Positions 3,608-23,712 of a DNA stretch of 64,000 nt are shown one piece after another. The position numbers were made by a program, and so were the translations under genes. Within the stretch, counting starts at the first letter, position 1. Each line of letters starts with the position of its first letter. The notes under the pieces are model-generated. The model was not told the DNA's origin and made no database searches. It was given only the letters and a program-made list of their open reading frames with translations. The DNA lies in the NCBI GenBank assembly GCA_017654855.1, contig CM030336.1:3782001-3846000 (forward strand), in the 5' to 3' direction. Source of the DNA: Podospora anserina. Taxonomy: Eukaryota.

Positions 3608-5644
3608 TTACAAAGTAACACCTGTTCCAGCCGCCGGAGGCGTAAGTGTCAACAGATTAAGTGCACCACCGGGAGACGTGTTCGCAGCTGGACCTGGTGT
3701 CGTCGCGCCGGCTTTGCTCGCCATCTGCGCCAGCGCCTCCCTCTCCGCCTTCTCCCTATCCCGCTGCTCCTTCTCGAGCTTCGTGATTCTTGGCTTCCTC
3801 ACGGTGCCGCCTCTCGAACCGGGCCCGCCACCTCGGCCCCGTCCGCTCTCGCCACCGCCACGAGCACCACCCCTGGACCCTCTTCCACGTCCACCACGAC
3901 CGCGTCTCGGGGGTCCCTCGGGCACAACAGGCTTCTCCACCTCGGGGATCAGAGGTCCGCTGTAGACGAAGAATCCATCCCTGCTCGCAGCTGCCTGCTC
4001 TTCCCAGAGCATCTCAGAGTCATCCACAAAGTCATCATCCTTGTCGTACTCGTCCTCCTTGAAATTCCGCTTCTTCCTCGCCGGCTTGGCAGGAGCAGCT
4101 TCGGGGCCGCTGGCCGGATTTCCGTTGCCCATGCCGCCCATTTCCACATTGCTGTTGTCGGCCTCGCTCAGGTCTTCCTCCATTTCGTCCCCAGTGTCAC
4201 GGCCGCTGCCATTCTTCTCCTTCTCCAAAGCGGCCGTGGCAGCTGCGATGAGAGCCTTGCGCTCCCGCGAGGCAGCCAATCTGGGGTGCAAAGCGTCCCA
4301 TCCGTAGCGTTCCTCGGCCATGCGCATGAAGTTGACATACTTGTTGTTCTCACCTTGCTTGAGCGGGATGTGAAGCGCGATGCTGGGCGGCTCGACCTCC
4401 TCGCCGGGCTTGGCCCTCCCGAAATCCAAGATGGAGCGCTCGCTGGCTGGAAGGGGCGGCAGCGAGTCCTTCTCCTTCACTCCGTTGATTTTTGGCGAGC
4501 TGCTGGTGCTGCTGCGCGCCTTCTTGTTGGCCTTTGTTTCTTGCTGGACAACAGCCGCGATCTTCTTGCTCTGGACAGGCGCGGGCGGGGCAGCAACCGC
4601 GGCAAGCGAGGAGCCGCTCGGAATCGACGACATGCTGGTAAATGAATTCATTTTGGGTTCTGGCTTGCTAACGGAGGCAGGCGCTGGAGGTGGCGGCGGG
4701 GGACGTCTGGCTTCGGCCAATGTGGGCTTGGGCATGGTAGCAGGGGTGGCCAGGACGGGGTTGGCCGGAGAAGCAGGGACTGATGATGGCTCCTGGAAAC
4801 GCGGCTGCGAAGTAGTTGTTGTAAACGATTGCGTCGGTCTGGGTGAGATGATGGAGGTTGGAGGATCGACTAGGCTGGCAATAGATGGCGATGCGCTGGC
4901 CCTGTTGGGAGCCTGGGCAGGCGCGCGAGGGGAGCCAAGCGGACCTCCGGTGCCATAGGGGTCGCGAGATACCATGCTTTCCCTAATGGGGTCGTAGTTG
5001 CCTCGGATGGGATCAAACATCTGCCTGGCAGGCGCCGTCGGCTGGGGCTGCGGAGGTGGCTCGTCGCTGTTGAGGAGATTCTGCATTTGCATCGAGGTCA
5101 TGCTCTCTCTCTTGGGCGGCGTCTGGACGAAGCCGGCGCCACCGTCCAACGACATGCGCATCGAGGTGAGTTCTGTGATCTTGGGCTGACGAGCTGCTGC
5201 TGCTGATGGGGGACCAGAGGCAGCCCGCGCATCCATCTCCGAGTTTGTCTCATTGCTCTCGGTAAGAGCGGCTTTGCGTTTCCTCTGGACAGGCGGGGCA
5301 TTGGGGTCCTTGGGTTTCCTCGGCCGACGCTGCTTGGGTGGCTCGACAGTCCCATCAGGTGCAACCTTCGGCTTGACTGTGCTACCAGGCTTCCGGCCCG
5401 GCTTTTTCCTAGGAACGCCGGCGGCGGTCAGTTGTGTGCCGGGCGGGTACTCGGAGGCTTGCTGTTGCTGGACCTGTTGCTGCATAATGCCGAATCTGGC
5501 AGCTGACCCGGGGTCGACAATGATCTCGTCCATTTCGATGTTGGCTCTGGCGGCGTTGATGATCCGAGTGGGCGATCCAGGCTCGGAAATGGCAGAAGGC
5601 GGTGATGACAACAGGGAGGGTGATGAGCTGTGATACTGCTGCAT
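3608..5644 (-). CDS. HPC2: HIR complex subunit Hpc2 (HUN/HPC2 domain)
   Basis: YVNFMRMAEERYGW and EDEYDKDDDFVDDSE...DGFFVYSGPL motifs, RGG-rich tail; first in-frame ATG at 5644 (the ORF track starts at a GTG at 5668). Confidence 0.85.
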   Translation of the reverse strand: MQQYHSSSPSLLSSPPSAISEPGSPTRIINAARANIEMDEIIVDPGSAARFGIMQQQVQQQQASEYPPGTQLTAAGVPRKKPGRKPGSTVKPKVAPDGTVEPPKQRRPRKPKDPNAPPVQRKRKAALTESNETNSEMDARAASGPPSAAAARQPKITELTSMRMSLDGGAGFVQTPPKRESMTSMQMQNLLNSDEPPPQPQPTAPARQMFDPIRGNYDPIRESMVSRDPYGTGGPLGSPRAPAQAPNRASASPSIASLVDPPTSIISPRPTQSFTTTTSQPRFQEPSSVPASPANPVLATPATMPKPTLAEARRPPPPPPAPASVSKPEPKMNSFTSMSSIPSGSSLAAVAAPPAPVQSKKIAAVVQQETKANKKARSSTSSSPKINGVKEKDSLPPLPASERSILDFGRAKPGEEVEPPSIALHIPLKQGENNKYVNFMRMAEERYGWDALHPRLAASRERKALIAAATAALEKEKNGSGRDTGDEMEEDLSEADNSNVEMGGMGNGNPASGPEAAPAKPARKKRNFKEDEYDKDDDFVDDSEMLWEEQAAASRDGFFVYSGPLIPEVEKPVVPEGPPRRGRGGRGRGSRGGARGGGESGRGRGGGPGSRGGTVRKPRITKLEKEQRDREKAEREALAQMASKAGATTPGPAANTSPGGALNLLTLTPPAAGTGVTL

Positions 5645-7514
5645 CGCGGTGTTTTGATCCTCCTCCACTGGGCGTGCCCCCTACAAGCTGCACAAAAACC
5701 CCCTTTGTGTGTGGTGGTCGGTTGGGTTTAAAGATGAAGTAGCTCAAAGGCGTATGCGTATGGTGGTGTATCGGTATCGGTATCGGTATAAAGATGGACA
5801 AGTTCAAGGTAACATATAACTAAATATAAAAACCAGCTGGTGATTGGCTCCTTTTTTTGCTTTGCACCGGTTTGGGATGCGGAGGCGTTGGTTGGTCCAA
5901 GCGTCTCCTCCGTTGGTTGTTGTGTCGCGGGTGGAGTTTGCTGCGTCTGAATGCCTTCACCCGCCGAGGGCGCTGCAAAAGAGACAGCGGTCGGCGACAA
6001 AATGGGCGGTGTCCGGGCTGTTTAGGGGGATGCAGCGGTCAAAAGCGTATGGATCAATTCGGAAAAGACGCGGGAATCGAAATACGATGGTTGCGCGATG
6101 CAGGCACACCAGGCGTCAATGAAACTGATGGGAGTCGATTCTTTTGTGGTGGTTGTTGACTGCAAAAAGTGTGGAAAAAGAGAGTGAGAAAAGGAGGAAA
6201 TTTTGGGGTGCTGGGCGGCGAGGAGCAGGACGGGGATGGGCTCTGTTTTGGAACTTTTTTTTTTATTACTTTGCAGCTGGCGAGGGAAAACCGGGGCTTG
6301 ACCACCAAAGGGACATTTGTTCTGGAAAAAAACGAATTAAACACCATTAACAAGAACACTCAGACCAGGTTGCCAGTCCAGCCAGTGATGGAGCCAAGCG
6401 ACGGCCAAAAGAGGGAAACGCAGTCATCAGATACATCAGACGGTTTGCCGATATCAGATTAGGTGATGGGAATGCCTCTCTGGCAGCTGGCCACCGCCTG
6501 ACCAACCACTCATAGAGGGAGTAGGGTGACCGGAGGGGGAAATGCCTTGGTTGCTCTGGCTGGGAAATGGAAGACGATAAAATAATATCAATGCTCTCTG
6601 TCGTCACAAGGCCTGGCTGTTAGAGGTCCCCCACCGGCGGGAAGTGACTTTAAAGTGTGACAGGGGAGAGGGGGGGTTCGTCGCAGAGCCAAGAGCGCGG
6701 AAGAGGCTCGCGCGGGGCGGCTTGGGTCCTGCGGTATCCTGCAGTGCCCTGCACACGGTACGGTAGGTACGAGGGTACTTCTGGATCTTGTACCCCGCCC
6801 CCCTTTCGCATTCGGGGTGGGACGATGCGTGACATTCTCCGCAGTGTCCGACCCACAATTGAGGGACAAAATAAACGTGCCGGGACAGGCACAGGGCATC
6901 CCTGATTGAAGCACAAGCCACATCCAATTCCACCAAGTCCCAATTCTCCGATCTATTACAACAAGCCGGTCGGTGTCTGTATACAAGTCAGAAGATGCTT
7001 GGGACGCAGTGAGAGAATGGAGAAGAAATTATACTCCAGATATACACCTAGTTAGACGTGGTAGACTTCTGCAGCGATATATCCGTCCCTGTGCCTTCCG
7101 ATCCCGAGACATGGCGTGTCTTGTATTCGTGCACTAACGATGCAATTTTCCGCTGCTTCACGTGCTGTGGCGCCGGTCTGCTACAGCAAACCGCTCCACT
7201 CTGTGCGAGTCTCTTCTCTCAGTTTCTCAGAAAAATAGCCAAAAGTATCGTTTTCTACACCTGCGAAACACTGGCCTGCATCTGAACGAGTGTTTCGAAT
7301 GCCGTGCACAGACCAGACCCGGTGCCATTCGGCCTTAGATCGACGCTAGCAGTGACGGGTAATTAGATAAGCAGCCACCCCTGTCCAGCTTCCAAAAGCT
7401 TCGTTAAAGTGGGGGGCCAATAACGATAACGATAACGGATAACTTGCTGGTGACGGAACCTTTTCTACCAACACAAAGTAACTTCTTCACCAACGCTCGC
7501 CCATTCGACCATCA

Positions 7515-7515
<1 letters not shown>

Positions 7516-7548
<33 letters not shown>
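7516..7548. repeat. (CA)n microsatellite in the RBA50 5' region
   Basis: Seen directly. Confidence 0.95.
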
Positions 7549-7553
<5 letters not shown>

Positions 7554-7568
7554 AACCCCCCCGACAAA

Positions 7569-8867
7569 ATGGAGGGATTCGGACTAGAGGTACGAGACGT
7601 TCTCGAACACACACCCGACGAAGTCAAGCCCCCGAGCTTCCCGACTCCCGCCAACCAGTCCGCGACCGGATTCCCAGCGCCCAAGAAACGAATTTCTGCC
7701 TTCAAGAAGCAGCGCCAGAACAACAACACAAGCATGCTCCCGACTCCTCCAGCCCAATATGGCCCAGAGCGGCCACCAGCACCAAAGCCAGAGGTGTTAG
7801 AAAAGCAGAGAATCGCCGAGGAAAATGACGCCCTTTTGAACTCGTTGCCGCCCGATCAGATCATGGAAGAACAGCGCGACCTTTTCAAGAACCTTGATCC
7901 AAAGCTTATCCAAATGCTCCTCCGGCGCGCAAACCTCGACGATTCCGGTCCCGCGAAATTCGATCCGTCCCCAGAACCCTCTTCGAGCGCGAAAACAACA
8001 CCCGTAACAACCACGACCAAACCCCCCAAAGTCACTGTCGAGGACGTCTCAGAAAACATACCACCACCACCATCCAAGAAAGATCCCACAAAACCCAAGA
8101 AAACAGTCACCTTTGACGAAGACGCCGCTCCCCCAGCTCCCCCAGCCAACCTCATCCCCGTCAAAACGATCACCACCACCGACCCAAACCTCATCATAAC
8201 CCCCTCCAACGCCCCCGACGAAGCCCACACATTCCACACCCACTACCCCCAGCCCCCCACTGTCCCCGACCTCGACCCCGAAGACCCGGACTTTCTCGAG
8301 AAAATGCACTCCAAATTCTTCCCCAACCTCCCCGCCGACCCCTCCAAGCTCGCCTGGATGGCCCCCATCCCAACCCCGGGCTCCGCCGCCGACAAAGAAT
8401 CCCCTTACTACCCAGGCCAGGACTCACTCCCCATCTCTGCGCTGCGCTTTGACTTTCGCGGTTTACTCATCCCACCGAGATTATCCCGGCAAATCCCTGT
8501 AACGAAGGGTCTTCACCACCATGGTGAGGCGCCCGAGGCGGCGGGGTATACTATTCCCGAGTTGGCGAGATATGCGAGATCGGAGGTCCCAGCGCAGAGG
8601 TGTATTGCTTATCAGACGCTGGGCAGGATGCTGTACAGGTTGGGAAGGGGTGATTGGGGGAAGGGTGAGGGTGGGAGGGTAGGGGAGGAGGACGATTTGG
8701 CGTTTGGGTTGTGGAGGTGTTTCAAGGAGAATCGGGTGGTGGAGAGTATTGAAGAGGAGGTGCAGGGGGAGGAGGGGAGGGGGCACAGGAGTTGTTATGC
8801 TTATGCGACGGAGGCGTTGTGGCTGTTTGAGAAGGGGGGTTGGAGAGAGAGGTGGAGGGGGATGTGA
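7569..8867 (+). CDS. RBA50: RNA polymerase II assembly factor Rba50 (RPAP1 family)
   Basis: RPAP1 motifs IAEENDALL, KLAWM, RFDFRG, GLHHHGEAPEAAGYTIPEL...SEVPAQRCIAYQTLGRML; intact 432-aa ORF. Confidence 0.92.
   Translation: MEGFGLEVRDVLEHTPDEVKPPSFPTPANQSATGFPAPKKRISAFKKQRQNNNTSMLPTPPAQYGPERPPAPKPEVLEKQRIAEENDALLNSLPPDQIMEEQRDLFKNLDPKLIQMLLRRANLDDSGPAKFDPSPEPSSSAKTTPVTTTTKPPKVTVEDVSENIPPPPSKKDPTKPKKTVTFDEDAAPPAPPANLIPVKTITTTDPNLIITPSNAPDEAHTFHTHYPQPPTVPDLDPEDPDFLEKMHSKFFPNLPADPSKLAWMAPIPTPGSAADKESPYYPGQDSLPISALRFDFRGLLIPPRLSRQIPVTKGLHHHGEAPEAAGYTIPELARYARSEVPAQRCIAYQTLGRMLYRLGRGDWGKGEGGRVGEEDDLAFGLWRCFKENRVVESIEEEVQGEEGRGHRSCYAYATEALWLFEKGGWRERWRGM

Positions 8868-9533: not shown

Positions 9534-9563
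<30 letters not shown>
9534..9563. repeat. (ATC)n microsatellite
   Basis: Seen directly. Confidence 0.9.
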
Positions 9564-9564
<1 letters not shown>

Positions 9565-9706
9565 ATACAAGACAAATCCCCAAAACAAAATTACCACATT
9601 GTATCATACAAGTTCCCTTCCCTTAACCCAACCCCCTATCATCAAACAATCTTTCAGTCATTAATTCCCATTTCTTTTCAATCCCCTACATCATACTCCC
9701 AGCCCA

Positions 9707-11554
9707 TCACTTCGACCCCCCATTAGCCAACCCAGCCCTCAACTCATCCACCTCCCTCTGCAACCTCGTCAAATCAGCCAGTATATCCACCCCGTCACCA
9801 CTACCACCACCCCCAGGTGAGGACACCACCACCTCATCCGTCGTGTCCGGTGTTGCCGCCGTCGCCATCGCCATAGCACTATTCCTAACACTACCACCAC
9901 CACCCCTATGCTTCGGCACCGGCGGCGCCTGCTTGCTATTCCCACTACTCCTCCTCACCACCCCCTCCCCCGCTGCCCCGACAGGTTTCTTAGCCCTCAC
10001 ACTCGCCCCCCTAGCCGGAGGCGGCGGCGGCGGCGTCAACTTCTCCTTTGCCGTCCCTACCACCGGTGGAGGGCTGGCAATAGCTTCCACCACCGATCCC
10101 GCCAGCGGCGGTGTGACCACACTGTTATTATTCGGCGTACTACTCCCAGACAGTGTCGGCGGCGGAGATACAGCCTCACCACTGGGCGACGCCACCACCC
10201 TCTGCGATGGTCTCCTCGGGGGCGGCGGTGCCGGCGCGTGGATGTTGGCTCGTAAGGAAGAAGACCGGGAACGGGTCGATTCCATTGATGATCGACGAGT
10301 ACTGCTAAACAATTCCTCCTCTGGTGAAAAAGGCCTAGGCTCGGACCTGCCATGATGTGGTTGTCGTCTCGGCGGGGGGGCAGGTTTTCTTGACGGTGGT
10401 GGTGTCGGCAGACTAGAGGTTGGGGAGGGGGAGCGTAAAGCGTGGATGATGTGAAGACCTGGGTCGGGCATGGCAGGCTCGGGAATCTTCCCCGCTGCTT
10501 CGTGGTCGAATATATTGCCATCTTCTGACACCGAGGGTTGTGAAGGGAGGGGTTTGTTAACGTCTGACGGGGTTGGGGGCCGCTGTCGAGATGGTGACGT
10601 GACAGGTTTAGGGCTTGCTAGTGATGATGAAGACGAGGTTTTGCCGCCTAGGGAGCTGCTGCTCTCCTGGCGGGTCGGGTCTGGTCGGATGAGTTTTCCA
10701 TGGCGGGAGCTCGGGGGAGGGGGTTTCTTTCTCAGGATGGTCGGTGCAGGTTGGAGGGTGGCGGCGGGAGGGTTGGGGAGTAACCTCTGCTGCTCATCTC
10801 CAACCGTCTGGCCTGGTATTTCCCGTGATAGACGTGGCGTGTCCTGCAACTGTATCGTTATCTCCGTCCCAGCTCTTTCCTCCGCCCTCCCGAGATCAGC
10901 ACTCGACCGTGCCGGTGTTGATCCCCCGGTCTGTCCAGTCAACAACAGCCTCCTGAACGCATCCACATCCAGCCCTCCCCTCGACCCTCCTGCCCCCACC
11001 TCAGTTTCCCCCCTCTCCTCCAACCCTGGTTGTCCCATCTGAAAAGATATCCTCGGCACCCCTCCCTCCCGCCGCCTATCCCCCTCTTGCACCGCCAACT
11101 CCTCAACCGAGCTCTTATTCGACCCCCCACCCGCCCCAAAAGGATCTACCTCCACCACCACCACCTCCTCCTCCTCCTCCTCCTCACTACTCTCACTACC
11201 ACTATCACTCTCCTCATCCGGCTCCCCAATCGGCGGGAACCTCTCCCCAAACCCATCACTCTCCTCCGGACTACTCGGCGGCGGGCTCTGCACCCTCACC
11301 TTCTTGACAACCTTTTGCTTCAGAAAACTCGTCGTCGGCGGCGGCTGAGCCGGTCTCGGTACACCCTGCAATGTTTCCCAGAATTGATCACCGCCGCCGC
11401 CCCCAATCGTCAAACTCGAGGTATTATCATCCCCCTGTATCGTCGGCGGTGGTGGTGGAGGAGGGGTCGTCGACTGCAGATCCGGGACGTCGGTAGCGGC
11501 AACGGGCTTGCGACGAAACGGGTTATTGGAATTGAACGATGGCTGGGTGGCCAT
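9707..11554 (-). CDS. Pro/Ser-rich, largely disordered hypothetical protein (615 aa)
   Basis: Long ATG-initiated ORF; N-terminal SNNPFRR, internal LDVDAFRRLLLTG, several PPPPxR motifs, C-terminal helix DILADLTRLQREVDELRA. Confidence 0.8.
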   Translation of the reverse strand: MATQPSFNSNNPFRRKPVAATDVPDLQSTTPPPPPPPTIQGDDNTSSLTIGGGGGDQFWETLQGVPRPAQPPPTTSFLKQKVVKKVRVQSPPPSSPEESDGFGERFPPIGEPDEESDSGSESSEEEEEEEVVVVEVDPFGAGGGSNKSSVEELAVQEGDRRREGGVPRISFQMGQPGLEERGETEVGAGGSRGGLDVDAFRRLLLTGQTGGSTPARSSADLGRAEERAGTEITIQLQDTPRLSREIPGQTVGDEQQRLLPNPPAATLQPAPTILRKKPPPPSSRHGKLIRPDPTRQESSSSLGGKTSSSSSLASPKPVTSPSRQRPPTPSDVNKPLPSQPSVSEDGNIFDHEAAGKIPEPAMPDPGLHIIHALRSPSPTSSLPTPPPSRKPAPPPRRQPHHGRSEPRPFSPEEELFSSTRRSSMESTRSRSSSLRANIHAPAPPPPRRPSQRVVASPSGEAVSPPPTLSGSSTPNNNSVVTPPLAGSVVEAIASPPPVVGTAKEKLTPPPPPPARGASVRAKKPVGAAGEGVVRRSSGNSKQAPPVPKHRGGGGSVRNSAMAMATAATPDTTDEVVVSSPGGGGSGDGVDILADLTRLQREVDELRAGLANGGSK

Positions 11555-13523
11555 TGTGTCTTTGACTTGTAGCAGAAAGGTAGGTCAAGAATATAAAAAT
11601 ATAAACAAGCTGTAGATTTGAGAGGCGCGCGGCTGGCGCAACAGCTGCAATCACGCAACAAGATAATAGGTCGGTTGAACAGCCCGGGCGTGTGCCTTGG
11701 TAGTAAGGCTTGGTAAAAAAGAGCCACTTAGGTAAGGTACGGTGGTGGTGGTGGCATCGCTGATGGGTGCCTGATTAGAACCGAGCCGGCCGCCGCTGAC
11801 TTCCAATAACTTGGACAGTGACGCGGGCTGTCGGATGCGGTCGGGATTAGCGGGGGGTAGGTTTGTTGACGTTGGGTGCTTGTCCGTCTCCAATGCACGT
11901 TTCCACAACAGCTTGGGTGATGAAAAATGTAGATAGCTATCTAGGTGGTAGGTAGTGTGTCAAAGGATTAGACAGCAAACAGAAGCTCCCTCCCCAGAGC
12001 TGAGCTGTGCTGTGCTTCCTGGGCCACGCCAACAGTCGATCAGGCACAGCAACAGCACCTGAACCAGATGACGGCAGAATCCCTTTCCGGAACACACACA
12101 CCCACGTTTCGATAAGGAACCTTCCGATAAGACTGGCAGTGTACCCCGTTAGCTAGCTCCGAACGGCAAGACCCACTTGAGAACATGCAGGACATGCTTG
12201 TCTGGGCACGGACCAGCATGAATCGGCGTGTAAGTGCCACAACTGGTGAAGCCTCAGATTTCTCGTTGGCCCACTTTGATTGACACCTGTGCCGTGGTTG
12301 GGTATACATATGAGACAGACACATGTGTATTTTGATAGATGTATACGGACCGCTGAAGAATACATCTTGATCACAATCATTAATCCCAATTTTATCGCGA
12401 GATTTCTGTCAAGAAGAATGAGCTAGCTGGCTGATCACATTTCCCCATCTCAAGCGGTGAACAAAACCTCCCCCCGCAACAACGCCCCCAATAATCCCGC
12501 ACTTTCTTCTTGCTCTTACCTTTCCAAATCTAGATTTACCATCTCAGCAAGTTACAAATGGTAGTCAACCCTCCAACTCAAAACACATCCCCAAAAACAA
12601 CAAAAAAAAAACAAGGAGTGGCCGGTGAGGAACCACACCCCTGACCCCGACCCCTGACCCCTGGGCGGCAGAAAAATGAGAATGGGGTCAAACCGAAAAT
12701 GTAAACAACCCCCGGTCGACGCGCCACCTACGCGTCGAGGAGCCCCTCCCCCCACTTGTTGGACCCCTTCTTTCTCTCCTCTCTGTATCCCTCCAGATCA
12801 AAACCACCATTCACTCATTCACTCAAAACTAAAGTGAGACCTCTCCAAAGATTTTGTCAGAAAGTAATTCAATTGGCATGTATAATTACAACTCATCAGG
12901 CCCCAAAAACCCCCCAGCCGAGATTTTAAGCCCACCTACCCACCCTACCTCCAACAAAAATCCTCTAACGCCTCCCTGCCCCAAAAGTCTACCCTCTTTT
13001 GCGCGCGCGCTTCCCGGTTCCAAAGTCCTTTTCCGAATCATGTGTGTTTGTAGTGATGTCGCGGTACGAATGATGGTTGGGTATCGATAGCAGAGAAAAA
13101 CCAAATGCATCTTGAATGATTCCAACAAAGGCTGCTCGCAAGTGATGATGATCGTCGTCCGACCCCTTCCTGTCTTCATGGTTGAAAATGTTTGTTGTAT
13201 ATGCAAGTTGTGGGAAGAAGGGGGGGGGGTATAGTAGAGCCAATAACCTTCGTCAACAAAAAGCATGTTTTTCCCACACGTTCTTCCCCCGTAATAAAAA
13301 AAATGTGATACAGGCCCTCCGAAACCAATAAAAACCCGCGCGCGCGCAAAAATGGTGCCTCGAAAAAGCGGCCGCTTATCCCAATGATAACCCCCAAGAT
13401 GATAGCCCCAGTGATAATCCTGAACGCCAAACTAAAAAAATAAAAAAAATAAAAAAAGCAGAGCCGTCATATCAAACAAGTATAAAAAAAACCATCATGA
13501 CAAGAAAGACTGACCCTCGGCTT

Positions 13524-17361: not shown

Positions 17362-19179
17362 TTAGGTGGTGTTCACAATAACCTGCGCCGGAAACACCAC
17401 CACCTCCTCCTCCCCTTCCCCTCTCAAATCCCCCTTCTGCACCACCAAAGGAAACAAAACAACCCTCACCACAGCCCCCTCGAGATCCCCCTCCGTGTCC
17501 CCCCGACCACCCGGTTGCGTCATCAACGACGAGATAAAATTCACCGTCGCCGCCAGCTCCCCATTCTCATTGTACTCGGGCATCAACGGCGGCAACACCA
17601 TAAACTCAGCCACCTGCGTCCTCATCTCAATCGACAGATTCACCGCCTCACTCACCACCCTCCTCAGCTGCACCCTCAACTGCTCTTCCAAATTCCCCGG
17701 CGGCGGCAACACCTTCGACAGCGCCTCCAAAATCGCCTCTGCCACCGCAACGGCATCCCTATCCCTCTGTTTTCTGAACGATTCCCTCCTCGACCAGAGC
17801 CCCAGCGTGGTAGCCCTCCAAGCACGAACCGTCGCCGTCGGCCCAATGTCCGTTAGCTGTTTTTCTAATGACTTGAGCTTGAACCTCTGCTCCCGGTCCA
17901 TGCCGAAGAGGTAACGGGTGAAAATGAATTCCCAGATCATTGACATGGTGACAGAAGTGAACATGTCCCGGCGTTTCACCCTGTCACGGAGGTAGTTATC
18001 GGCGTCGGAGCCGTCGAGGACAGAGTTATCTAGCCGGTCGATGATGTTTTCATCGTTGATTTCCGAGGTGAGGCGGCTGGCGCGCATGTCGGAGAATTTG
18101 GAGAAGCGGAGGACCCATTGGGTGACGGTCGTGAAGAGGTGCTGGCAGCGCTGTCCAAAGTATTCGGTGGTGTGGATTGTTCCGAGCTGGGTTGGTTGGG
18201 CTTTGAGGATATCTAGGCTTGTTGGCAAGCTTTGGGAGGTCGTGGGTTGGGTGGCAGCCTCTTCGGGAGTGTCGGTAGTAGGTTTGGGTGCAGGTTGAAC
18301 AACCTCGGATGCTGTGGATGGCATCGGCGAGACTGCTGTAGGGTCACCCATCCGGTCACCGGATGGCTCGGATGTAGACACGAGAAACGATCGTGATTGG
18401 GTTTTTGAGTCGAAGCTGATGTTTTCCAGAGCCATGATCGATTGCGGACTTTTCGTGCTAGTCCTGTTGGTGACGACCTCCTTCGCCAAAGCCATCATTC
18501 GTCGGTAGGCTCTCGAGTTGACAACAGTGTTATCAAATTCGAACTCGACGCCCTCGGCCACAGTGTTTCCATCCCCACGGAAGATTGTGTCGGCAGTCCT
18601 CCGCGGATTCAGAACAGACTCGGCAATTTGAAGCTGAGGATTCGCCAACCGCAAGGACGCCGCCTTGGTCGCTTGCCTGTCTAGCAAACCTTTCCCGTTT
18701 CTGACGCCCTCGAGAATCTCATCGGTAGTATTCATGTGCAACACTTGAACCAGAAACGCAATCGCGGACTGCTGTCCTTGCAATAGCGATAGATACCCTT
18801 TCATCTCCCCCTCATTTCGCACAATCCGCGCTTTAGTCCACCACGTCCGCACAAGCGAGCGACGGGACTCCATCAGTGCGGTGGCATCGCAGAGTTTTTC
18901 GAGGGAGTCCTCGAAGCAGGTCAGTACGACTAGGCAACCGGTGAGGGTTGTGTCGAGGGTGTGGACGACATCGGCCTGGCCGCGGACGGTGTGGTTTTGC
19001 AGGATGAGGGTCTGGAGCTGGGACAGGCCGGTCTTGATGGCGGCGCATTGGGAGGAGAGGGCGGTGATGGTGACTTGAGCGTTTTGGAATTTGGTGTGGA
19101 GGGTGTCGAGGGCGCGGGCTGCTTGGAGGCAGATGCCTGTGATGCCTGCGATCGAGGCTGTTATCGAGAGGGGGTCCAT
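17362..19179 (-). CDS. 605-aa protein with a fungal HeLo-like N-terminal domain, a low-complexity linker and a C-terminal domain resembling the Leashin/Lah C-terminus
   Basis: N-terminus MDPLSITASIAGITGICLQ...; FEFDNTVVNSRAYRR motif; C-terminal QWVLRFSKFSD...WEFIFTRYLFGMDREQR...VVLFPLVVQKG...PAQVIV; single intact exon. The Lah similarity is from memory and needs a search. Confidence 0.8.
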   Translation of the reverse strand: MDPLSITASIAGITGICLQAARALDTLHTKFQNAQVTITALSSQCAAIKTGLSQLQTLILQNHTVRGQADVVHTLDTTLTGCLVVLTCFEDSLEKLCDATALMESRRSLVRTWWTKARIVRNEGEMKGYLSLLQGQQSAIAFLVQVLHMNTTDEILEGVRNGKGLLDRQATKAASLRLANPQLQIAESVLNPRRTADTIFRGDGNTVAEGVEFEFDNTVVNSRAYRRMMALAKEVVTNRTSTKSPQSIMALENISFDSKTQSRSFLVSTSEPSGDRMGDPTAVSPMPSTASEVVQPAPKPTTDTPEEAATQPTTSQSLPTSLDILKAQPTQLGTIHTTEYFGQRCQHLFTTVTQWVLRFSKFSDMRASRLTSEINDENIIDRLDNSVLDGSDADNYLRDRVKRRDMFTSVTMSMIWEFIFTRYLFGMDREQRFKLKSLEKQLTDIGPTATVRAWRATTLGLWSRRESFRKQRDRDAVAVAEAILEALSKVLPPPGNLEEQLRVQLRRVVSEAVNLSIEMRTQVAEFMVLPPLMPEYNENGELAATVNFISSLMTQPGGRGDTEGDLEGAVVRVVLFPLVVQKGDLRGEGEEEVVVFPAQVIVNTT

Positions 19180-19797
19180 TGATGGTGCCTAGTCACCCAC
19201 AATGGGCCGCGCCGGTTGATGCCGAAAAAATACGGCACGTTAATACCATCTCTCAAGACAAGTTTTTGAGTCTTCGTGATCATCAGGAATCGTATCCAGC
19301 TGGGGGCGCATAAGGCATCTTTCGAGGCTATGCTGCAGGATTGATTCTTGGCGGCACATAACTGGTCGATGGACTTGTTCGGAAGAAGTGAGGAAATACC
19401 ACTCGATAGGGGATCTACACCTAGAGTTTGAACTTTGAATTCAACAGTGGCTTCAGCTGTCAAGTCGGGATGATGGACACGACTGATCTTTTTGCTGAAC
19501 CACTTTGAACAGCCGCTAAAATAGGTACCTTAGTCGAGCAAATAACGTAGACCATGAGTTGCTACCAGGTAGCATGACACTGGCATATCACGAACTCTCT
19601 TCGAAACCAAATCGCAGTTCGCATGAGGATGTCACATCCTACATTATTCACACTCCCTCAGATTCAAACTCACAAGTGACACCAACATAATGTCATCAAA
19701 TAATCAAACAACATGTCTCACGACAGTGAAACACAGAAGAGCAAGGAGCAACGTCACTGCAGCACAGTATATGTATTAGGTCCCTTTTACTCCTTCC

Positions 19798-20005
19798 AAC
19801 AGCAGCCCTGAAATCTTGACCAGGGCGCCACATTGTGGTCAGGACAAACGGTCAAGGTGGAGGAGCTGCTTGTTACCGCCCCCCTCCCCCACCGCTGGGA
19901 GCTTTGCAACCGACAGCTCCCGAGTTCGATTCCGAAGTAAAACCCACGGGTTTTTGTAGCCGGCCACCCTACAACTAAAGGCTGGTCGGTGAGCTTTTGC
20001 TTTTT
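19798..20005 (+). ncRNA. Putative structured non-coding RNA or Pol III element, family unknown
   Basis: Several short inverted repeats, B-box-like GTTCGATTC at 19924-19932, A-box-like TGGAGGAGCTG at 19858, TA-rich motif near 19768, oligo-T runs at 19951 and 20001. Confidence 0.3.
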
Positions 20006-20630
20006 CTGGGCCCAGTTAATAGATTATTTTGGCTTTCTTTTGGGTTTTTTATTTTTATTTTTTTAATTTTTTTTTATTTTAATTCATTTTTGGTTTTTTT
20101 CTTTTTTCGGCCCAGTTGATACATTATCTTGATTTTCTTCATCCTGGAGACAAGTAACCGGGTATCGACTTTAACTTCGAGACTCGAGTCGAAGGTCTTT
20201 GAAACCAGACATTGATCGCCATCTGACAATGCTTTCATAACGACTCACATCTTGTCCAACAAGCCAAGTAGTTTACTTATGCCTTTAGCATGCAATTAAT
20301 TCGATTATTTCTCGAGATCAGCCACTGCGATTATACCTCGAGTCAAAAGTCTCGAAGATAAACACTAAATTAATCACCGATATACCTTGGTCACACCCGA
20401 CAACATTTCTTTTTGCATAGAAATCCCGTGAGACGAGTCGGGTCGTTTTATCAACACAGCTCGTGATCCACACGAGAGATTAGGCCGGGAAGCAATGGTG
20501 GACATGATTTTATATCCGAGGCATGGATTACCGAGGACGATCAATGTCAGGCTTCTCAGCTCCAAGCCAATACCTTGCATTATCGACACCATTGATAGGT
20601 AGGTATTGGCATCTCGAGAGTCGATATCGT

Positions 20631-21414
20631 CTACAGACCAACCGAAATTATGCTCTCTTTTTGACGTACGTCATTCATGATTTTTGCTGCGAAAATCAGT
20701 TTGGACAGGACAAGCTCCATTAACCTCAGCAGCTCTCCCTCCGGTCGCATTGGAATATGGACATATGTAATGGGGATTGGGGGACTGGTTGGGTACCGTT
20801 GACTGGGCCGGTCAAACCGGTCGAGAAAGTGAGAGGGGATGAGGGCTGTGTAAAAATAGAGGTTGTCATCCTTGGCGGCCAGTAGATGAACCTATTCACA
20901 ACACTGTTGGCCCACCCCAAGCGTGCGGCATCGCATTAGGTTATACGTACCTTGTAGTGGTCAGGGCGGCTTTGGTGTTGGTAGTACTGCTCCTGCGCAA
21001 GGGCAATCAGAACGGCAGCGATATATGGATCCTCAATGTTTTTGGCCGGTCGGAGGCGCCGTTGCCGCTTATGCTGCGCCCGGGCAACGGGCGAGTTGAG
21101 CCGACGGGATCGGAAGAGTGGGATGGATTTGTCGCGGCGTCTTTGCTAGAATGCTACGCGATAGTTGACGAGCAGCATGCCGGAGCCCTTCCGGGAATCG
21201 GGCTTGCTCGTCCCCGTGCGGTCCAATCTCTTCACGGGCGAAGTAACATCCGAGAAGGGCGAGGTGCTGCGCTGTCCAGTGTAGCGGCCGCACAAACAGG
21301 CGACTATGTTTGCGCAGAATGTCGTTTTATTGATGCCAGTTCGGTTTCTCGGAGGCGCTTGAGCGGTACCTCCGGTTTCCCTTCAGTCGCAGGTTTGGAA
21401 GTAGACGTTGGCAT
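20631..21414 (-). pseudogene. Pseudogene A of the divergent pair; fungal hypothetical family (PLHW..HL / EDPYIAAVLIALAQ), intron 20950-20892
   Basis: Reconstruction MPTST...PLKRLR...[frameshift ~21325]DILRKHSRLFVRPLHWTAQHLALLGCYF...[frameshift or deletion ~21140]RRLNSPVARAQHKRQRRLRPAKNIEDPYIAAVLIALAQ...HYK|VHLLAAKDDNLYFYTALIPSHFLDRFDRP...*. Confidence 0.7.
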
Positions 21415-21882
21415 TTTGTGTTGGATAAGGTTTGTTTGGGAGAGTGGTCGCGGTGGGATGGACGCGTTGTTTGAATTGCGTCACCAGATCATGTGCTATA
21501 ATGTCCCAGGCTGTTCGCAAAAAGGTCCATGCCCCACACTGAATTCAACCAATCAGGCTTTACATTCTACTTACAAAATATACGGGCCTTAAAACTCTTC
21601 AAAATTCTTAATTTTTACGCCAATAAAGCAAGATTTATTAATCCCAAGAGCTCTTTAATATTCTATGCGGTTTTTCCTTCTTTCAAATGGCCTTGTTATA
21701 TTTCAAAATGATAAAGTTTGATGAGTGCGAGAGGAGACCGTGGACCTCATTGACGACCACCCTGCATAGAGCCCAATGCTACCTACCCAGCCCAACGCAA
21801 ATGTGGTCCCTTATTGCGCTGGAAGTAATGATGTGCTTTCATCGTTCTTCTATATTACTCAAGAACCTGTCCAAAAGTCCAG

Positions 21883-23091
21883 ATGCAATCTTCGGACACC
21901 GGGGTGCGACCAGCCAAAAGGCAGAAGCTGGATGGCATCAACGTTATCCTGGACACGAGCAACGAGGAGTTGACGAAACCTGCTAGCAAAATGGGGCCCT
22001 CGCCATTTAATCGCTTATAGGTTTCGCGTTGGCCATGAATCCCCATTTCTACCGACCTTCCTCGATATTCACCACAATTCTTGTCCCGTATGCGGGGGTC
22101 ACAATACACCGTCTCAGAGAGTCGACATTGACCGGGTTAGGTCCTTGATTGGGGAAACTCCCCGGAATTTGTGCCAGCAGGCCGAAAGTGAACTTCTTCG
22201 ACTGCCCGAGGGCTTTTTCTGGGCCGCCCTTGCCCGCACAGCTCGCCACGAGCTTCTTGAGCCTGTGGCAGAGAAGGTGTATCCGCAGCGAGCGAGGACA
22301 TCCGTACAGAGGGAAGGCTACATCCCCTCCGGAACGGCTATACTCGGTTCCTCATCTTCTACCCTACCCTCTTTGTCCGATTTTGGTAACGATACGGATG
22401 ATTTCAACGAGGACGGGAATGAGGCCCGGCGTGGTAAACCTGAGGAGGTCACTGTTCATCTTATCACCTGTTTCTTACAAGTCGCCCTAGGACTTTGCCT
22501 CCTGCAGCATTCCGCCGCCGAAACTTGGATGCAAGTCGAGGTCAGACCACAGGTCGGGCGTTTACGGTCGACAATTCAAATTGCCGGAAATCCTATTACG
22601 GCTGAGGACGACGGAGGGGTTTGTCGTATGCGTCACAGGGGATGTAGGTGGACGATGGACCAACCTTACTTGGCTATTATCGAAGTAAAGCGAGCATTTT
22701 AGCCCATCAACGCTGATGACGGAACGGCATCATACAACCCAGTCATACCGTACGAGAATCTGGCACAGTATCTTGGCGAAGCCGTTGTTACTTGGAAGGC
22801 AAACCCCCACCATTTCAAGAAAGGGTCAAGATTTTTCTACCTCATCTCCCCCTTCCCCTCCTTCTCCTAGGTTAATCGTATATAGCCGCTCGTGCTTACT
22901 TTACTTCAGAGCGGTTTTGATTGCGGCCACGAATACCTTTCTCCGCTTTATTCGGGCAAAGGGCCCTTGTCGGTGATGCTTCGAAGGAAGTCTTTGTTCA
23001 AATGCAGAGTACGAGCTAGTTAAACCTTCAGTCATATAAAGCGAGACGAGTCGCCCTTTGTCACGTTCTAGCATTAGTAGCATGCGCATGA
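21883..23091 (+). pseudogene. Pseudogene B of the divergent pair; PD-(D/E)xK restriction-endonuclease-like protein, intron 22825-22909
   Basis: Reconstruction MQSSDTGVRPAKRQKL...KPASK[+1 at 21988-21991]WGPRHLIAYRF...KPEEVT...AEDDGG...IIEVKRAF[TAG 22700]...ENLAQYLGEA...KG|AVLIAATNTFLRF[frameshift]...MQSTS[TAG 23017]LNLQSYKARRVALCHVLALV. Confidence 0.7.
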
Positions 23092-23174
23092 AGTTTAAGG
23101 TGGAACTGGAATTCCATCGATGTTTGGATTCTATAGTAAAGATGTGGTTGTGTGCTGTAACATGCGAAGCTCTC

Positions 23175-23460
23175 ATGACAAAGGCCACCAAGCCCGCCAA
23201 GGGTAACTATGTCCCAGGGTTCTATCAGCAGGCGCTCAACGACCAAGCCTTGATCTCGAATATCGAAAGGCATCTCAACAAACTGTGTGAACGGGCGCGC
23301 CAACTCGATGACTACGCTGGTAACGAAGGTGAGATGTCGGACATAGATGTCGTCTCAAGACTACACAGGTAGGTAATGTTTAACGCCGCTTTCATACCGA
23401 CCCACACTCTAACACTTTGTCCAGAGAGCCGAGTACTTCACCATGCTTCTCAACTCACAC
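23175..23460 (+). pseudogene. Possible truncated gene fragment with an intron-like stretch (about 23369-23424)
   Basis: Protein-like MTKATKPAKGNYVPGFYQQALNDQALISNIERHLNKLC..., then GTAGGT...CTAAC...CAG; no recognisable family. Confidence 0.3.
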
Positions 23461-23712
23461 AGACAATCATCACACGTCTCGCCACCGCACTGCCATTGAC
23501 ACCACAGATTGACAACCATCATGATGATATTCATTTTACCCTTTACCAAACACCCCGAGAACGCCACGCTAAATATGCTATACTATGTATGCTCTTAGCA
23601 GCACACAAGACAGCCCATAAAATCCCAGTATCATAAATGCAGAATACAACAAATTCACTCCCCATCCTCATTGCTCACTGTCGAGAGTTCATTCTCCAAG
23701 TGTGTGAGAGAA

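Follow-up and report, generated by a model that had tools for sequence, protein, structure and literature searches.

We analysed a 64,000-nucleotide stretch of the Podospora anserina genome (GenBank assembly GCA_017654855.1, contig CM030336.1, positions 3,782,001 to 3,846,000 of the forward strand; hereafter the window, with positions counted from its first letter), in which an initial annotation, made from the letters alone, had picked out two broken genes diverging from a spacer of about 470 bp. The two genes, here called A and B, do lie head to head, with 468 bp from ATG to ATG and lesions on both sides (Table 1), and both are pseudogenes in the window. Many other fungi have relatives of both genes as a conserved, divergent and tightly linked pair, of which B is a predicted nuclease and A a putative non-catalytic partner.

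Gene structures, lesions and transcription at the locus

Six pieces of B in the window are collinear on a profile hidden Markov model (HMM) of 14 full-length homologues, the main piece with an E value of 8e-92, and three pieces of A (21326-21138, 21142-20969 and 20891-20694) match the A-family profile with E values of 2e-15 to 2e-23, so that both gene assignments are far beyond chance. Homology to B extends to about 23124, slightly beyond the end given in the initial annotation (23091), whose quoted peptide strings were all located in the window where it had put them. Profile searches found no second copy of A or B within the 64 kb.

The lesions of A were read against P0060, an intact orthologue of 284 amino acids (aa) from Triangularia verruculosa (homologous proteins carry our own P numbers). 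The deletion in A takes out P0060 residues 95-148, the predicted beta1-beta3 sheet with TDG...LAYLDLE, and by tblastn against P0060 the gene additionally lacks two codons in frame. The deleted segment is retained in P0060 and in the gene models P0061 and P0062 from two Podospora species; both of these models are abnormal at the N-terminus, and in P0061 (P. pseudoanserina) antisense B sequence is fused to part of A, probably through an error of annotation. Repeat-induced point mutation (RIP) was considered as the cause of decay and rejected: the values for A and B (TpA/ApT 0.72-0.81, (CpA+TpG)/(ApC+GpT) 1.04-1.18) resemble those of the adjacent ELYS gene (0.70 and 1.08) and differ little from those of the entire window (0.60 and 1.26).

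RNA-like contigs from four runs of four different studies were aligned over 20300-23400. Over A they show no difference from the window in any of the four runs; over B they differ only at three positions and carry every disabling lesion, so the lesions are not errors of one assembly. The three differences, common to the contigs of runs X15, X16 and X18 (21790 G>A, one base omitted at 21837, and 21886 C>G, which turns the second codon of B from Q to E as in P0003), probably reflect strain variation. The A intron is skipped in the contigs of two runs; the predicted B intron is unspliced, the contigs running through it. Contigs over A end at 21429-21449 and those over B begin at 21478-21628, and in three runs no contig covers the central part of the spacer. 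This is the pattern expected from two divergent transcripts, and the locus appears to be transcribed, although the contigs give neither expression levels nor exact transcript ends. The spacer holds a bidirectional promoter and probably most of the 5' untranslated region of B.

Table 1. Positions of genes, introns, motifs and lesions at the A-B locus of the window.
Feature	Position	Strand	Evidence or remark
Gene A, pseudogene of the basic 'A' family	20631..21414	-	ATG 21414, stop 20631-20633; A-family HMM, tblastn with P0060
A PLKRLR	21349-21366	-	
A lesion 1, 1-nt frameshift	21326..21328	-	between N-terminal piece 21414-21328 and W-T-A-Q-H-L piece 21326-21138; frame -2 to -3, tblastn with P0060 and P0063
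A N-terminal motif HWTAQHLALLGCYF	21240..21281	-	family consensus PLQWTxQHLxLLGCRF
A lesion 2, junction of ~160-bp out-of-frame deletion	21138..21145	-	tblastn with P0060, P0061, P0062 jumps from residue 94 to 149 with frame change
A helix EDPYIAAVLIALAQEQ	20987..21034	-	E, D, P, Y, Q nearly invariant in A family
A intron, 59 nt, phase 0, GTACGT..AATAG	20892..20950	-	directly 5' of V-H-L-L-A; skipped in contigs of X15 and X20; splice enumeration
A string VHLLAAKDDNLYFYTA	20844-20891	-	
A-B spacer, 468 bp	21415..21882	.	RNA-like contig ends on both sides
Gene B, pseudogene of the acidic 'B' family	21883..23124	+	ATG 21883; collinear HMM matches, tblastn with P0010, P0001, P0003
B PAKRQKL	21910-21930	+	
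B lesion 1, frameshift (frame 1 to 2) just 5' of KWGPRHL	21977..21990	+	high-scoring segment pairs of P0001 and P0003 overlap in two frames
B string KWGPRHLIAYRF	21989-22024	+	
B HHNSCPVC, part of possible H-H-C-C metal site	22070..22093	+	family H46, H68, C72, C75 invariant or nearly so
B KPEEVT, conserved glutamates opening core helix	22436..22453	+	model helix 188-207
B AEDDGG, conserved aspartates ending a strand	22601..22618	+	'PD' position
B IIEVKRAF, ExK motif	22676..22699	+	family LEAKRAF; E268 and K270 invariant
B lesion 2, in-frame TAG	22700..22702	+	
B helix NLAQYLGEA	22757..22783	+	Q296 and E300 invariant
B predicted intron, 85 nt, phase 2, GTCAAG..TTCAG	22825..22909	+	one base 5' of the V codon of V-L-I-A-A
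B string VLIAATNTFLRF	22914-22949	+	
B lesion 3, ~53-nt deletion and frameshift	22953..22965	+	family residues ~330-351 gone; P0010 318-329 in frame 3, then 352-397 in frame 1
B lesion 4, in-frame TAG	23017..23019	+	at a W position of the family
B lesion 5, in-frame TGA	23089..23091	+	within a 6-residue insertion

The surroundings of the pair were covered by a scan of eight neighbouring open reading frames (ORFs), which include ELYS, SMC, RPAP1, Gti1/Pac2 and a PigL_N protein, and tblastn finds the downstream neighbour in common with T. verruculosa. The upstream neighbour is an open frame of 608 aa with a PigL_N domain (E 2.7e-8) at 17362-19188 on the minus strand. Directly 3' of B lies a small spliced gene (23100-23640, plus strand), where the contigs of X15 and X16 end at 23368 and loose letters resume at about 23425, implying an intron of about 56 nt; the T. 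verruculosa model P0003 fuses a truncated B to this downstream gene. Antisense stop-free frames run over A (20843-21592, plus strand, 249 aa) and over B (22049-22351, minus strand, 100 aa). Past the 3' end of A, the stretch 20000-20499 is T-rich with a GC content of 0.38, and within 20000-20150 it contains a duplicated unit of about 40 bp (GGCCCAGTT.ATA.ATTAT...), possibly a repeat remnant, which lies about 500 bp past the A stop codon and outside the A transcript (contigs reach about 20546).

Protein families, conserved residues and predicted folds

The main piece of B finds 59 proteins of 300-420 aa (E down to 1e-114) in Sordariomycetes and Eurotiomycetes, and an intact A orthologue finds 62 of the same kind; the proteins of both sets are unnamed, hypothetical or uncharacterized, and none has a precomputed Pfam domain. 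An exhaustive HMMER search with the last exon of A gave 40 representatives. Intact B proteins measure about 400-420 aa and intact A proteins about 350 aa. Among 33 members of each family no Pfam match fell below E 0.018 and none reached 0.001; for the 33 of B no nuclease family occurred among matches up to E 1 (the best of any family being at 0.018), and PF07147 was matched by neither set at E up to 1. The window pieces gave no Pfam match, NCBIfam none for either family, PADLOC a single weak one (E 0.0037, over a 21-residue stretch of P0015), and the A and B profiles matched no PDB sequence at E < 1. Motif scans with the B alignment found no relative of B in prokaryotic and viral contig collections, and Foldseek of B against viral models returned none at E <= 0.001. 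A full-text literature search, which does not extend to the supplements of papers, found no paper describing either family. Judged by sequence similarity, A and B appear to be separate uncharacterised families of the Pezizomycotina, and the pair to be undescribed.

Across 33 sequences of B, E189, E268, K270 and Q296 are invariant and E190, D243 and D244 nearly so, a conserved E...DD...ExK...Q set that bears out the PD-(D/E)xK layout read from the window copy, in which PEEV, AEDDGG, EVK and LAQ are still encoded. B has the ordered acidic residues and the (D/E)xK motif expected of the PD-(D/E)xK superfamily and is a candidate member of it. At the N-terminus of B, the conserved H46, H68, C72 and C75 may form a metal site, and disorder is predicted for a conserved stretch rich in serine and acidic residues. 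In 33 sequences of A, D184 is found in 18, D203 in 30 and a lysine at the lysine position in only 3; judged from these residues, intact A proteins lack the catalytic D...(D/E)xK. The absence of D/ExK noted in the window A therefore holds for intact homologues too, and the accompanying caveat, that the internal lesion could have removed the catalytic residues, falls away: the deletion is not why none was seen. The families are oppositely charged, with a median isoelectric point of 9.7 and net charge of +16 for A (33 sequences) and of 5.5 and -15 for B (14 full-length sequences). The basic N-termini resembling nuclear localization signals that had been described for both genes are present in the window (PAKRQKL and PLKRLR) but are not a feature of the wider B family.

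AlphaFold2 models had a predicted local distance difference test score of 75 and a predicted template modelling (TM) score of 0.76 for B, and of 78 and 0.74 for A. Both end in the order helix (with LAQ)-strand-strand-helix-strand-helix, and the order of elements in B fits an alpha-beta-beta-beta-alpha-beta core. In Foldseek searches of the PDB, ranks 1-16 for B are all chains of the mitoribosomal large subunit (best E 1.1e-3, probability 0.96-0.97, TM 0.21-0.35), followed by AddB at E 0.4. For A the best matches are 9uwh_s (E 5.8e-4, probability 0.99) and 9hcd_s, and lambda exonuclease appears at E 0.47. The mitoribosome chain 9uwh_s is among the top three PDB matches of both models (E 1.3e-3 for B), and the top two chains of A are among the top seven of B; the chains labelled '5' and 's' we take to be mL37 and mL65. 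The nearest named ESM Atlas cluster is mL37 (PF07147) for both, with scores of 0.76 and 0.77; the structure rows for A list mL37 (TM 0.53), Mrr_cat (0.30) and Uma2 (0.30), and further clusters for B include HSDR_N and PDDEXK_12, B scoring 0.76-0.78 to these two and PDCD9. The fold comparison that the initial annotation had proposed (AlphaFold, Foldseek) thus found the same endonuclease-like fold as best match of both proteins, weakly, and the models give moderate support to a restriction-endonuclease-like fold in A and B and to a resemblance between them. A complex prediction for B (P0010, residues 1-405) with A (P0067, residues 60-355) scored 0.00 against a mark of 0.34, with alignments unused and controls unfolded, and weighs neither way.

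The three unnamed ESM Atlas clusters nearest to B (P0010) are labelled 'commonest Mollusca' (scores 0.95-0.96, 403-426 aa, 56-143 members), an unverified lead; those nearest to A are from Ascomycota.

Linkage, co-inheritance and decay of the pair in other fungi

To survey the linkage of the genes, metagenome contigs were scanned with the B alignment alone and A was then sought by profiles of both families. Of the 21 loci found (numbered L001 onwards), 14 carry A on the opposite strand, upstream of B; in six of the other seven the upstream sequence is shorter than 700 bp, and in the last, L020, B is badly decayed. Once near-identical loci were merged, 16 distinct ones remained, 12 of them with enough flank, and A is present in 11 of these 12, in agreement with the linked divergent module that had been proposed from the window. 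Among the database proteins, 12 of the 59 B matches come from the same organism and a contig of the same size as an A match; the locus tags are consecutive in two of these pairs (F66182_9208/9207 and MFIFM68171_03632/03631), and the contigs of four measure only 3.4-13 kb. Intact-looking pairs have 353-702 bp between the first profile matches. DNA similarity among distinct loci ends at the gene bodies, and the flanking ORFs vary by locus (10 scanned: CBM21, lactonase, DUF7587, RNase H, APH (kinase), NACHT, CAP and MFS). The tight linkage and divergent orientation of A and B are conserved in many other fungi.

Individual loci show further features. In L009, direct repeats of about 240 bp (74-96% identical) flank the pair, with a third, inverted copy downstream (2728-2965, 7481-7642 and 8514-8568); it is the only locus with such repeats. 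In L020 a NACHT/NWD-type NOD-like receptor gene with ankyrin repeats (9544-12258) lies 1.7 kb downstream of the decayed B without A. Two CAGCCAC copies in tandem, 11-15 nt apart, occur in 5 of 11 A-B spacers (L001, L003, L004, L008 and L009, of which L003 and L004 are related), 140-190 nt into the spacer segment from the A end and always in B orientation; these segments run between the first HMM matches and include the unmodelled N-terminal codons of A. The motif, possibly a shared transcription-factor site, was not found in the window spacer.

The two genes also diverge in parallel. Identities between A partners correlate with those between B partners (r 0.77, reached in none of 2000 permutations) over 17 pairs, comprising eight loci and nine named pairs, with decayed or fragmentary cases left out (the L007 group, L014, L019, P0003/P0060, P0006/P0114 and P0059/P0081), and the nearest neighbour is the same for A and B in 13 of the 17. 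In Diplogelasinospora grovesii, which has two separate pairs, the same foreign pair is nearest for both genes of each, suggesting that the unit was duplicated or transferred as a whole. In a quick tree built from 40 B proteins, Arachnomyces groups with Sodiomyces, Aspergillus falls inside a Sordariomycete clade and Sordariales are scattered over at least four places; some species have several copies per genome.

Decay is frequent, B being decayed in 8 of the 16 distinct loci. Within the 12 loci with enough flank, an intact-looking B stands beside a broken A in none of six cases (one cut by the contig end), and a broken B stands beside an intact-looking A in L008 and L015, as in the T. verruculosa pair P0003/P0060. 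L008 also has a second, partial B (4369-4879, profile positions 100-269), about 770 bp downstream of the last profile match of the first (3602). L007, L010, L012 and L016 are copies 95-98% identical to each other, the first three at 98%, with differing B lesions, an in-frame stop at profile position 247 in L007, L010 and L016 and a frameshift at 285 in L012, which are either recent independent decay or assembly errors.

Interpretation and comparison with known systems

Two features are suggestive of a common origin of A and B. The N-terminal block (PLQWTxQHL in A, ASxWTxRHL in B), first noticed in the window as a common W-x3-HL motif, aligns in hhalign with P 8e-4 over 14 columns, a score that 0 of 120 shuffles reach. 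The introns were likewise rightly said to sit at a similar position before a hydrophobic strand: in the window and three loci per gene (L001, L004 and L009 for A; L009, L011 and L013 for B), the A intron falls in phase 0 directly before V-H-L-L-A and the B intron in phase 2 one base before V-F-L-I-A, a displacement of one base. The B intron keeps its position and phase in all three loci, and a two-exon structure is found in all loci. The head-to-head arrangement is moreover what an inverted duplication would leave.

With a probability of roughly 0.6, we read the window locus as a dead, still-transcribed copy of a conserved Pezizomycotina two-gene unit in which a nuclease B and an inactive partner A work as one. 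On this reading B would be an acidic protein with a PD-(D/E)xK-type nuclease core, and A a strongly basic protein of similar predicted fold that lacks the catalytic lysine and is probably an old inverted duplicate of B. Sharing a short promoter head to head, the genes would be inherited, duplicated and lost together, and their products may act jointly as a heteromeric nuclease, in which A would have no catalytic function but would bind nucleic acid or regulate B. Such a mechanism would resemble that of active/inactive nuclease pairs and of the mL37/mL65 pseudo-dimer. The unit is dispensable; its patchy occurrence, its multiple copies in some genomes and its frequent decay point to a role that is accessory or conflict-related rather than housekeeping.

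Several points weigh against this reading. The paralogy proposed in the initial annotation is suggested by the N-terminal block and the intron positions but not by whole-protein hhalign of A with B, which is not significant (probability 0.6, E 0.096; beaten by 1 of 60 column shuffles); the intron phases differ, and the B profile does not match the window pieces of A at E up to 10. A and B are probably paralogous, the evidence being suggestive only. No significant sequence or profile tie of either to a curated nuclease family was found; the structural matches from Foldseek are weak (TM 0.21-0.35, with nothing at E <= 0.001 for B), ESM Atlas scores of 0.76-0.78 are leads only, and mL37 and mL65 are themselves non-catalytic RNA-binding proteins. 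The linkage survey starts from B, not reciprocally from A; equal contig size is only indirect evidence of a common contig; and correlated divergence is expected for any two genes of related genomes, so that it counts as supporting evidence only. None of the runs listed as carrying the locus is recorded as RNA; that the four used are RNA is a guess, which only the spliced joint and the spacer gap support.

The main rival, possible but less likely, is a toxin-antidote or incompatibility cassette, in which B would be a nuclease toxin and A, descended from an inactive paralogue, the inhibitor or antidote matched to it; the pair would persist or spread selfishly (by spore killing, allorecognition or addiction) and decay once fixed or lost. 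Tight linkage with inheritance as a unit is as such a two-gene system would have it, and so is the pairing of a B of catalytic type with a dead A. Of the two genes A is the faster to evolve (nearest-neighbour identities 0.88 vs 0.71, 0.85 vs 0.77 and 0.83 vs 0.70), the quick B gene tree is at odds with taxonomy, and the decay is lopsided as described above, with half of the distinct B copies decayed, no intact-looking B beside a broken A, and the reverse in L008, L015 and T. verruculosa. Precedents are reported in the PD-(D/E)XK domain of Spok (PMC6660238) and in CinA-CinB (PMC8787490). Set against this, the argument is drawn from sequence and not from function, and the small counts would equally fit random decay of a dispensable pair. 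The window copy, moreover, is syntenic among core genes (ELYS, SMC), and its downstream neighbour is common to T. verruculosa, so it has long been vertically inherited; no within-species presence/absence polymorphism was seen, the same broken locus occurring in all four runs.

That A and B have separate functions and merely share a bidirectional promoter, being co-regulated but neither interacting nor of common ancestry, seems improbable. The non-significant whole-protein comparison and the differing intron phases would fit, and divergent gene pairs are reported to be common in eukaryotic genomes (PMC4551913). Adjacency is nonetheless kept across classes of Pezizomycotina though every flanking gene differs, the pair duplicates as a unit, decay of the two tends to coincide, and A and B match the same fold in their models, have an N-terminal motif in common and are oppositely charged. 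A two-gene mobile element or cargo (a transposon, Starship passenger or virus-derived unit) with B as its nuclease, which the initial annotation had also entertained, we consider very improbable. The differing genomic context of every distinct locus, several copies per genome in some species, the conflict of gene tree with taxonomy, the repeats around the pair in L009 and the unverified 'Mollusca' clusters nearest B would suit it. However, L002, L004 and the window have no terminal inverted repeats or shared ends, similarity of distinct loci stops at the gene bodies rather than continuing into shared flanks, among the flanking ORFs scanned the sole transposase, recombinase or reverse-transcriptase type match is the RNase H ORF in L009, and the motif scan found no relative in viral or prokaryotic collections. 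The window copy itself bears no RIP signature, sits among core genes and is syntenic with a related genus.

A bolder and doubtful extension would make the unit an unrecognised eukaryotic conflict element, in which a nuclease toxin acquired an antidote from its own inactivated inverted duplicate and the two have been moved or retained as a unit through cycles of invasion, fixation and decay, the window showing the last stage. Its reach might go beyond fungi if the 'Mollusca' clusters of the ESM Atlas are real relatives of B. If true, fungi would have a new toxin-antidote or incompatibility system of two genes, directly testable in yeast or Podospora. The window copy is dead and therefore cannot act as a cassette in this genome, and taken alone the window is a modest finding, two transcribed pseudogenes. 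To our knowledge, however, a pair that stays head to head across fungal classes amid changing surroundings is rare in eukaryotes, and such lasting adjacency is usually a sign that the two products have to be produced jointly; should B prove an active nuclease with A as an inactive partner, they would constitute a new heteromeric nuclease of fungi.

Heterodimers of a catalytic subunit with a paralogue that lacks catalytic residues and binds substrate are familiar from XPF-ERCC1, Mus81-Eme1 and the tRNA-splicing endonuclease (Sen2/Sen34 with Sen15/Sen54). Those enzymes serve repair and processing, are universal and essential or nearly so, and have unlinked genes, whereas A and B are accessory and tightly linked and show no sequence match to them, and the A-B dimer is only proposed. 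A second likeness is with mL37 and mL65 (MRPL37/MRPS30, PF07147 PDCD9) of the animal mitoribosome, which provide the best PDB matches and the nearest named Atlas cluster for both models and are described as two related endonuclease-fold proteins, a pseudo-dimer of repurposed endonucleases on nucleic acid (PMC8998825). Unlike those repurposed proteins (PMC8998825), B keeps a full catalytic-type set, and A and B have no PF07147 match; they are also patchy, often decayed and adjacent, unlike genes of core ribosomal proteins. The mL37/mL65 pseudo-dimer is the nearest structural analogue.

Among linked systems, the toxicity of the Wolbachia PD-(D/E)XK nuclease CinB needs its active site, and CinA binds it specifically and rescues, according to PMC8787490; A and B would be alike in being a linked pair with one product a PD-(D/E)XK nuclease, which for B is a prediction. 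CinA and CinB differ in forming a bacterial co-directional operon, in the two nuclease domains of CinB, and in that CinA is not described as a nuclease paralogue in PMC8787490; no sequence similarity of A or B to CinA-CinB was found. Spok, from the same host group (Podospora), requires its PD-(D/E)XK domain for killing and is reported as a single protein with a coiled coil, nuclease domain, cysteine cluster and kinase domain (PMC6660238). It differs in joining killer (nuclease) and resistance (kinase) in one protein, A and B having no kinase match, and no Spok-named protein occurs among the 59 B and 62 A matches, most of which are unnamed or 'hypothetical protein'. By sequence, the A/B pair belongs to none of these four groups; CinA-CinB, Spok and the active/inactive heterodimers would, by analogy, be its nearest functional counterparts.

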